From Octopus vulgaris (Eukaryota): a stretch of DNA of 64,000 bases. How positions within the stretch are numbered: the stretch's first letter is position 1; each line of letters begins with the position of its first letter. Location of the stretch: positions 24,242,001 through 24,306,000 of the forward strand of contig OX597831.1 in assembly GCA_951406725.2 (NCBI GenBank). The letters are read 5' to 3'. The translations under genes were made by a program, and so were the position numbers. Of the stretch, positions 31,056 to 59,709 are shown piece by piece. The notes under the pieces were generated by a model. The model had not been told where the DNA came from, ran no database searches, and saw nothing but the letters and a program-made list of their open reading frames with translations.

Positions 31056-31620
31056 TCATCATCATCATCATCATCGTTTGACTTCATGTTTTTCATGCTA
31101 GCATGGGTTGGACGGTTCGACCGGGGTCTGGGAAGCGAGGAGGCTGCACCAGGCTCCAGTCTGATCTGGCAGTGTTTCTGCAGCTGGACGCCCTTCCTAA
31201 CACCAACCATTCCATGAGTGTAGTGAGTGCTTTTCACGTGCCACCAGCACAGGTGCCAGGGTAGGCTGACAGTGGCCATGATTGGTTGGTGCTTTTTATG
31301 TGCCACCGGCATGGAAGCCAGTCAAGGTGGTGCTGGCATCGGCCACGTTCGGATGGTGCTTTTCACGTGCCACCGGCACAGGTATCACATCTAAAATTTC
31401 CGTTTGATTTTTATTTTGATGTTGATGTACTTGACTTAACAGGTCTCCTTAAGCACAGCAGGTCACCCTACGATCCAAGGTAAGCACAGCAGGCCGTTCT
31501 GTGATCCAAGGTATTTTGGATGGGCTGGGGCTGCTATTTGAAACTGGTGCACGAAACAGCCATGAATTCATGTTAATTGTCGGGTCTTCACAGTCACAGC
31601 ATATCTCCAGAGATCTCTAT
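31056..31620 (-). mobile_element. Longest family C copy: RTE LINE 3' UTR plus the last ORF codons
   Basis: Minus strand ends ...RDLWRYAVTVKTRQLT*, resembling the DRxxWR C-terminus of RTE ORFs, followed by UTR and (GAT)n. Confidence 0.75.
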
Positions 31621-31870
31621 CATAATACAAATCCACCAAATGTCTGATCTTGGATTTACTATACCATTTATTAATTTTTCGCAATTCAAGTTTTTCTTTA
31701 ATTCGTTGTTTTGCAGTTGGTTTTTCCACTTTTTCAGAGCTAAAATCTAAAAACATCATTACAAGAGAAATGTATCATCTATATCCTCTGACCCAAAATA
31801 TGTTAAATAAGTTAATAAAGTTAATTAAATATATGCATATATTCTCATACAGTGTTGATTATATTAGAAA

Positions 31871-31944
31871 ATTATTAATCCCTTTCTCTCTTTTTCTTTT
31901 TTGTAGGTAAGTGAATCAAATATTTGCTGTTAATAGCGGTAAGG
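31871..31944 (+). promoter_or_regulatory. Candidate recursive splice site (AG 31905-31906 | GTAAGT 31907-31912) with downstream donor GTAAGG at 31939
   Basis: attattaat ccctttctctctttttcttttttgTAG|GTAAGT, in unique non-TE sequence. Confidence 0.6.
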
Positions 31945-32247
31945 ATTCGTTTTTTCATCTTAATCATCATTATTTTTGTTTTAGATTGAATTTAAAGCAT
32001 ATTGTTTTTGATCTGTTTTTAAAGTTATATTAAAACTGAAATTACATGTGACCAAGTGACTTCTAGCTACAAGATGTTACAAATGTTGTAGGTGTATGTG
32101 TGTGAGAGAGTGTGTGTGCATGCATGTGTGTGTGTGTATATATACACATATATATATATATATATTAAATAAAATGAGATAACAAAACCAAGGGTGTTTG
32201 GAATTTTCAGGACATAGCTGTTTCTGGGATATTAGTGATATATATAT

Positions 32248-57353: not shown

Positions 57354-58028
57354 TGTACAACCACTCATGCACCTATATATATATATATATATATAATCAT
57401 ATCAAAGGGAAATGGAATTTAATTAAATTTAAAATATTCAATCAAATTTTACATTTCCAGTGGTCTAACATGCAAAATAGTTAGTCAAGAAGACTATCTA
57501 TTAGTTATACGATATAGTGCATATTTATACACATAAGGAATCCACTTAGTATGAGATTCAGCATATTAGAGAGAACATCTAGGTTCCATAAACCACAAAA
57601 ATAACAGATAAAATTCAACAGGAATAAATTTGGAAATGAAAAACATTTACCATCTAGTACCCCGAAAGCAAACATAAAAACAAGGGCTGTGAGCAATGAC
57701 AGGGAGCAATATATACATTATATACACCACTACCACCACCACTACTACTACTACTGCTGCTGCTGCAATGATCTTCTCTTCCTACTCCTCTGCAAGATGT
57801 GCTTCTAGCTAACACTCTTTATAGAATATTGAAATGTACATAGGTTTTAGAGACGAACCCTATTTGTTCCATCCCAAGATAAACAAGATGGACACAAAAA
57901 TATTCCGAAGTCTTCTTATCTGTAAAATATCCAAAAAAAAGATACTTCTTTCATTCCAAAACAAACACAGAATATCCAAAAGTACTCGCAGAGCAAAATA
58001 AACATGTCTACTCAGGTCAAAAAGCAAA

Positions 58029-58049
58029 TATAATGATAATGATGATGAC

Positions 58050-58104
<55 letters not shown>

Positions 58105-58134
58105 GTAATAGCAATAATAAATATAATAATAATG

Positions 58135-58173
<39 letters not shown>

Positions 58174-58202
58174 GCAATAATAATGATAATAATAATAGTA
58201 GC

Positions 58203-58244
<42 letters not shown>

Positions 58245-58273
58245 TAATAATAATAATGATGATGATGATAATA

Positions 58274-58343
<70 letters not shown>

Positions 58344-58393
58344 TAATAATAATAATAATGATGATAATAATAATAATGATGATGATGATGATG

Positions 58394-58433
<40 letters not shown>

Positions 58434-58468
58434 TAATAATAATAATAATAATGATAATAATAATAATC
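58029..58468. repeat. Long imperfect (AAT)n/(GAT)n microsatellite, about 440 bp
   Basis: Directly visible. Confidence 0.97.
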
Positions 58469-59709
58469 GTAATATCACCAACAAAGTAATAATTTCTGTA
58501 ATCTTGTCAAAGTTGTTGAAATTTCAATATTTAACTTAATATACATATGTTGCTATAGATTTGCAGAAAATCATAGATTACTTAAAAGAAAATATAAGTT
58601 TTAACATATCTCTTGAAATTGTGCTTTGAATTTATTCTCAGTGAATTTATTTTTAAAGCAAACAAAACTTGAAATAAAACCATACTTATGAAAACTGCCA
58701 GGAAATTGCTGAATAGCATTTATATCTTGCTTTTTATATTTTATATTTATATTTTGCATTATATTTCAGTTCACATTTTTTTTTTTTTTTACTTTTTTTA
58801 GTTTTTTAGTTTTTTTACTAAGGGAATCCTTAGGATTTATTGAATGAATGCAAAAAAAAAAAACAAAAATGAAAAAAAAAATGTACAAAAAACAACGACC
58901 AACTAAAAAAAAAAACAAAACAAAATCTTATGGAAATTATTTGCAAAGATTATTTAATTTTTCTATAGATCATTTATCTATATAAAACATTTTAAGTTTA
59001 GCTTCTATTTTAATGTTAAAGTAAATGAGTGTTAACATAAAATGAAAATATAAATAAAAAATATATCAAAAATACTGTTGAACCACTGATTCACAAAATT
59101 TTTAAGATATTTTGCTTCAGAATCCAATTAACAACAGCAGCAAGAACAAGAAGAAGAATATCACTACTTAATGTTTAACCTCTTCTGAAAGTAATTCATA
59201 AATACCGTTCAGAAAATTTGTTGTATCATCAAGTTATTGCTGTCTATTTTTTCCCCCTATTCAGAACTAGAATATCAATATGGCAATCAGCCTGATGCAC
59301 ACCATTGATAGCCAACAATGTCTTGTTACTTATGCCACAGCCTGTCACTGATATTAAGTGATAGAAATCAGTGTATGTACAACCACACAACCTGTCAAAT
59401 ATAGCAGCCAAATCTCCTTGAAAACACTCCCTTTTATCTTAAAACTGGAAGAATACATTACATAAATGAGTCCCTGTTGTATGGAATGCCTTCCATCGTA
59501 GGTCTTCTGAATCAGGACCAATTTGGGCCTCAAAGGCAAACATAAAAATGAGGGCTATGACAGGGAGCAATATATACATACTGAGTTCAAATTCGTCCTG
59601 AACTGTAATTAAGAGGAGTAATCAGATGGATTTTACATACACGCATACACACACATATATCTGTATATATATGAATGTGTAAGCATTTATAAACATACAC
59701 ACACACACA

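Follow-up and report, generated by a model that had tools for sequence, protein, structure and literature searches.

A Probable Recursive-Splicing Ratchet Point With a Cryptic Exon in the Genome of Octopus vulgaris

Introduction

The octopus site described here probably acts as a ratchet point of recursive splicing, carrying a cryptic RS-exon and lying in a very long intron of a + strand gene. This reading was first put forward in an original prediction made on a window of 64,000 nt (the whole stretch of DNA analyzed; C18:24242001–24306000 of genome G000, which comprises 2.80 Gb in 227 contigs). Its support comes from sequence evidence of several kinds, namely the genome-wide enrichment of the motif, same-strand clustering, branch and TT features, second donors, and a sense orientation to neighboring genes. 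Both flies of the genus Drosophila and vertebrates are documented to splice recursively (PMC8605326).

Anatomy and Predicted Function of the Site

The candidate site occupies positions 31871–31944 of the window and consists of the following elements:

31875–31879, + strand: branch-point-like TTAAT, predicted from sequence, whose putative branch A, at 31878, precedes the junction by 29 nt
31879–31902, + strand: polypyrimidine tract, 24 nt uninterrupted, with TT at −6/−5, within a 37-nt AG-free zone
31903–31906, + strand: predicted 3′ splice acceptor gTAG (G at 31903, TAG at 31904–31906)
31907–31912, + strand: consensus 5′ donor GTAAGT, the predicted ratchet-point donor, directly abutting the acceptor
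31907–31938, + strand: predicted cryptic RS-exon of 32 nt, a length not divisible by three; every frame contains a stop
31939–31944, + strand: second, weaker donor GCG/GTAAGG, the predicted RS-exon donor

The TTAAT, the tract of more than 20 nt, the gTAG and the GTAAGT at 31907 all lie where the original prediction had placed them, as does the second donor CG/GTAAGG at 31939, which delimits an exon of 32 nt (31907–31938). Several features by which ratchet points are recognized are present in the sequence: an acceptor and a donor juxtaposed behind a strong pyrimidine tract, TT at −5/−6 together with an upstream branch motif, and a short cryptic exon that ends at a weaker donor downstream. The closest AG upstream of the acceptor is 37 nt distant. 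The claim that the site lies in unique DNA holds as well, positions 31618–32070 being single-copy in a genome search in which a dispersed repeat was matched by the first 58 nt of the query only; AGGTAAGT occurs once in the window when both strands are checked. Elsewhere in the window, a long composite trinucleotide microsatellite at 57860–58540 contains stop-free low-complexity frames of ~200 codons and is non-coding by appearance.

The 32-nt segment had also been described as closed in all three frames, and the stops are indeed there (TAA then TAG in frame 0, TAA in frame 1, TGA in frame 2). Their weight as an argument is slight because 19% of random unique 32-mers forced to start with GTAAGT are likewise closed in all three frames, and the stops are irrelevant if the intron lies in a 5′ UTR.

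By analogy with fly and vertebrate cases (PMC8605326), the 32-nt segment would first be recognized as an exon, bounded by its acceptor and by the donor at 31939. Splicing would then join the upstream exon to 31907, where the new junction would recreate a strong donor able to beat the weaker one at 31939, and the next step would remove the 32 nt together with the following intron segment. Since the regenerated donor is proposed to win, the mRNA would retain nothing of the 32-nt segment.

One contig from run X2 (organism B), about 95% identical, covers positions 31618–32075 with 21 differing letters (20 of them listed), and because it spans the stretch without an indel and carries the same motif, the motif is not an assembly artifact. 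None of the listed differences falls within 31851–31935, and one, at 31936, affects the −3 position of the second donor. About 16 of the 20 are packed into 134 nt upstream of the site (31661–31794), a block that can be read as a diverged haplotype or as relaxed constraint; the remaining four (31850, 31936, 32030 and 32036) are spread over the next 281 nt.

The Genome-Wide Class of Tract-YAG/GTAAGT Sites

Across the whole genome, the pattern Y16-N-YAG-GTAAGT has 97 matches, compared with 20 for the reversed pattern and 105 for the other seven GTRRRT hexamers between them. Sites of the form Y16-N-YAG-GT number 3147, and AAGT comes next in 97 of these (3.1%) as opposed to a local background of 0.47–0.65%, a rate which predicts 15–18 GTAAGT matches. 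With a pattern that demands a TAAY branch motif plus a tract of 10 nt, GTAAGT gives 71 rows (69 sites) vs. 9 in the control, the three hexamers GTAAGA, GTAAGC and GTAAGG together give 32 vs. 20, and bare GT gives 2567 vs. 3268. The strong excess is therefore limited to the full U1-complementary donor consensus, and about one fifth of the strict matches are expected by chance.

Further features were counted for the first 30 loci among the 97. Ten of these have a strict second donor at +20 to +100, compared with a background of 4–5% (p = 5e-7), and within 100 nt it is missing in the other 20. The branch-like motif YTRAY at −45 to −20 is present in 18 loci against a background of 20% (p = 2e-6), while TT at −5/−6 occurs in 26 of the 30 loci and in 12 of 27 control tract-YAG sites (p = 0.002).

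A dispersed repeat family, represented by the loci L008 and L010 and by similar matches on C5, C7, C14, C18, and C25, carries a branch-tract-TAG/GTAAGT arrangement of its own and could seed new splice sites. L008 and L010 are 82% identical over 190 nt (BLAST).

Same-Strand Series and Spacing

On C18, DNA was read contiguously over 914 kb (C18:23892001–24806000), and the region 24.816–24.96 Mb was sampled only. The candidate site has five + strand companions, which gives at least six same-strand copies across ~870 kb. The sites along this part of the contig are listed here together with weaker candidates:

C18:24096413, + strand: strong tract, GTAAGG
C18:24273907, + strand: the site of interest (window 31907)
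C18:24410907, + strand: 61-nt segment, then CCG/GTAAGT
C18:24646781, + strand: 30-nt segment, then TTG/GTAAGT
C18:24754944 and 24755467 (L100, ~8944 and ~9467), + strand: tract and CAG/GTAAGT twice, in a 523-bp tandem duplication
C18:24965126, + strand: in one of four sampled 10-kb stretches
C18:24690431 and 24791859, + strand: weaker candidates
C18:24523064, − strand: one weak GTAAG site

The gaps of the series measure 177, 137, 236, 108, and 210 kb, the last of which crosses unread DNA. Within the 914 kb, YAG/GT preceded by at least 17 pyrimidines in 20 nt continues with AAG in six of eight cases on the + strand (five of them independent, the candidate site included) vs. none of five on the − strand, the background being 1.5%. 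A search of the 150 kb preceding C18:24042000 gave no ratchet-like site.

Sites also cluster on the same strand genome-wide. Two motif listings were merged into 126 sites, of which eight were removed: seven resembling one repeat family (two alike by BLAST and five judged by shared wording) and one of two sites 33 kb apart whose matched sequences are identical. Among the remaining 118 sites, 20 same-strand and no opposite-strand pairs lie within 300 kb, where 1.5 pairs are expected in all, and within 500 kb the numbers are 22 and one, respectively. The median distance between consecutive sites on the same strand is 133 kb (n = 15); as strict patterns miss weaker sites, this spacing is overestimated and the true segments may be shorter. 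Further same-strand series, all on the + strand, comprise five sites over 337 kb at C13:4468652–4805422, three sites at C9:104955598–105622543, which precede an ion-channel locus on the + strand at 105.93 Mb, and three sites at C23:40186279–40454897.

Host and Neighboring Genes

ORF and exon screens over the 914 kb, which short or non-coding exons may escape, yielded no host exon, and none was seen in four sampled 10-kb stretches farther downstream that were read by eye. When 147 of the 168 exon-like candidates from the 914 kb were compared with Pfam, one reverse-transcriptase fragment alone scored above the cut-off. This fragment (Pfam RVT_1, E = 1.6e-8) is on the − strand in a GC- and CpG-rich patch (L107:2000–3300; C18:23.904–23.905 Mb). 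The original prediction had noted that supported coding exons were lacking for about 30 kb on either side of the site, a gap which now widens to ~380 kb upstream and 530 kb downstream within the reach of the screen. Its prediction of a + strand host agrees with the five further + sites and with the lack of a comparable − site nearby, but no host exon was found in the 914 kb.

Twelve domain families were searched for across the genome (I-set, homeodomain, Ig_3, RRM, fn3, V-set, 7tm_1, PDZ, ligand-gated channel, zf-C4, Ion_trans, and PK_Tyr). None of them matches C18:21.3–28.7 Mb among the matches listed, a result which does not imply absence, at most ~150 candidates having been scored per family. 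The simplest reading is that the series would mark a very long 5′ intronic region of a + strand gene, with coding exons beyond the DNA that was read. At L043:6316–6396 (C18:24118316–24118396), 22 kb downstream of the site that opens the series, the + strand carries an exon-like segment of 81 nt bounded by a strong acceptor and a CTG/GTGAGT donor; this segment has no Pfam match and is possibly an untranslated or cassette exon of the host.

The relation of the class to neighboring genes was evaluated on 548 loci, reduced by hand from eleven domain-family searches; three V-set matches lay within Ig loci that had been counted, and a kinase locus was dropped because it and an fn3 locus belong to one gene. 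A site lies within 500 kb of 16 of these genes (17 site-gene pairs), a measure of proximity and not of containment, and the candidate neighbors include Ig-domain, ion-channel, and kinase loci. Thirteen of the 16 share the strand of their site, the site being upstream of twelve and downstream of one, and three are on the opposite strand, which corresponds to a bias with p = 0.011 for strand (13 of 16) and p = 4e-5 for strand and upstream position combined. Since a uniform model gives 23 pairs as opposed to the 17 observed, there is no overall enrichment near genes, and the bias is one of orientation only.

Alternative Explanations

The segment might instead be a real 32-nt microexon, belonging to a 5′ UTR, a lncRNA or the class of poison exons, which is included in some transcripts via the donor at 31939, so that its GTAAGT start would be incidental or would permit occasional skipping by re-splicing. 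We regard this as unlikely, although a strong acceptor and a good second donor do delimit a clean exon, its stops, present in every frame, would turn it into a poison exon within coding sequence, and expressed RS-exons are known (PMC8605326). Ordinary exon starts need not favor GTAAGT, however, whereas the present class is enriched 5–6 fold for this hexamer, and the T at +6, found in 71 of the 103 GTAAGN rows, likewise speaks against a microexon. Furthermore, the internal donor outscores that of the exon (8.0 vs. 5.4 in an ad hoc matrix built on consensus frequencies), and a regular same-strand spacing of 100–240 kb is unexpected for cassette microexons.

It is slightly more doubtful still that the elements of the site were juxtaposed by chance in AT-rich, microsatellite-rich intronic or intergenic DNA and that the site is never used. 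Such an origin would fit the 15–20 of 97 strict matches that are expected by chance, the lack of a host exon in the 914 kb, and the comparison with the single X2 contig, in which the 74-nt core has one difference vs. 3.7 expected from the flank rate, a non-significant result (P = 0.12). The candidate site, however, combines the motif with a branch motif, a 37-nt AG-free zone, TT at −5/−6 and a strict second donor (3.6% background), and it is located in unique DNA as part of a + strand series.

Least probable by far is that the motif class was spread by a transposable element or by local duplication with splice-like signals, its clustering reflecting insertion history: L008 and L010 are indeed copies of one repeat, five more matches share its wording and the 523-bp tandem duplication repeats one local site, but this account is already weakened in that the candidate site is single-copy, the other class loci are alike over 23–58 nt only (the length of tract plus motif), and the exclusively same-strand clustering was counted after removal of the eight such matches.

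Discussion

A ratchet point in a very long intron thus remains the preferred reading of the site, and it may be placed in a wider frame. We find it reasonably likely, if with some reserve, that recursive splicing of the fly type operates genome-wide in cephalopods, with at least 100 ratchet points, located in the giant introns of genes of neural type, and steps of ~130 kb, the candidate site being one step of at least six over at least 870 kb.

The octopus sites resemble Drosophila ratchet points in the juxtaposition of acceptor and donor, the pyrimidine tract, the TT at −5/−6, the weaker downstream donor, and the arrangement in same-strand series. In the fly study, TT occupies −5/−6 in 196 of 197 fly ratchet points, and recursive segments range from 2.6 to 63.6 kb with a mean of 18 kb (10.1101/006163). 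In contrast, the octopus gaps are ~7 times longer, with a median of 133 kb genome-wide and 108–236 kb locally, values which the strict patterns overestimate. Drosophila ratchet points with cryptic RS-exons include those of Ubx, kuz, Bx, and luna (PMC8605326). The cryptic exon measures ~50 nt in the fly, and the corresponding segment measures 30–61 nt at three local octopus sites. Proof of the fly sites comes from conservation and from reads that show junctions, lariats, and a saw-tooth pattern, whereas the octopus sites are sequence-based candidates.

There may be likenesses to vertebrates as well. Human recursive sites with a saw-tooth pattern have host introns with a median of ~550 kb (PMC10156609, summarizing Sibley 2015 and Duff 2015), and PMC10156609 and PMC8605326 describe vertebrate introns of several hundred kb and an RS-exon that is needed for recognition. 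In number, the ~100 strict octopus candidates are nearer to the fly than to mammals, for which only about nine fully suppressed sites are reported (PMC8605326).

The original prediction knew of no characterization of such sites in molluscs, and in the literature searched here, mainly open-access main texts, no paper on recursive splicing in octopus or other cephalopods was found, and among the titles listed none concerned splicing in molluscs. While the mechanism itself is already known, the candidate site and the class of ~100 sites would likely be new for cephalopods.

If the reading is correct, a lophotrochozoan would join flies and vertebrates, pointing to a mechanism shared across bilaterians, with a step size that scales with that of the genome. 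The finding bears on the bilaterian ancestry of recursive splicing as well as on how introns of several hundred kb are spliced in repeat-inflated genomes. It would also provide a rule by which unannotated giant genes can be found and oriented, in that same-strand series would show on which strand, and how far, those giant genes run that are invisible to a coding-exon screen. With coordinates at hand for ~100 sites, these proposals are directly testable in total RNA from cephalopod brain.
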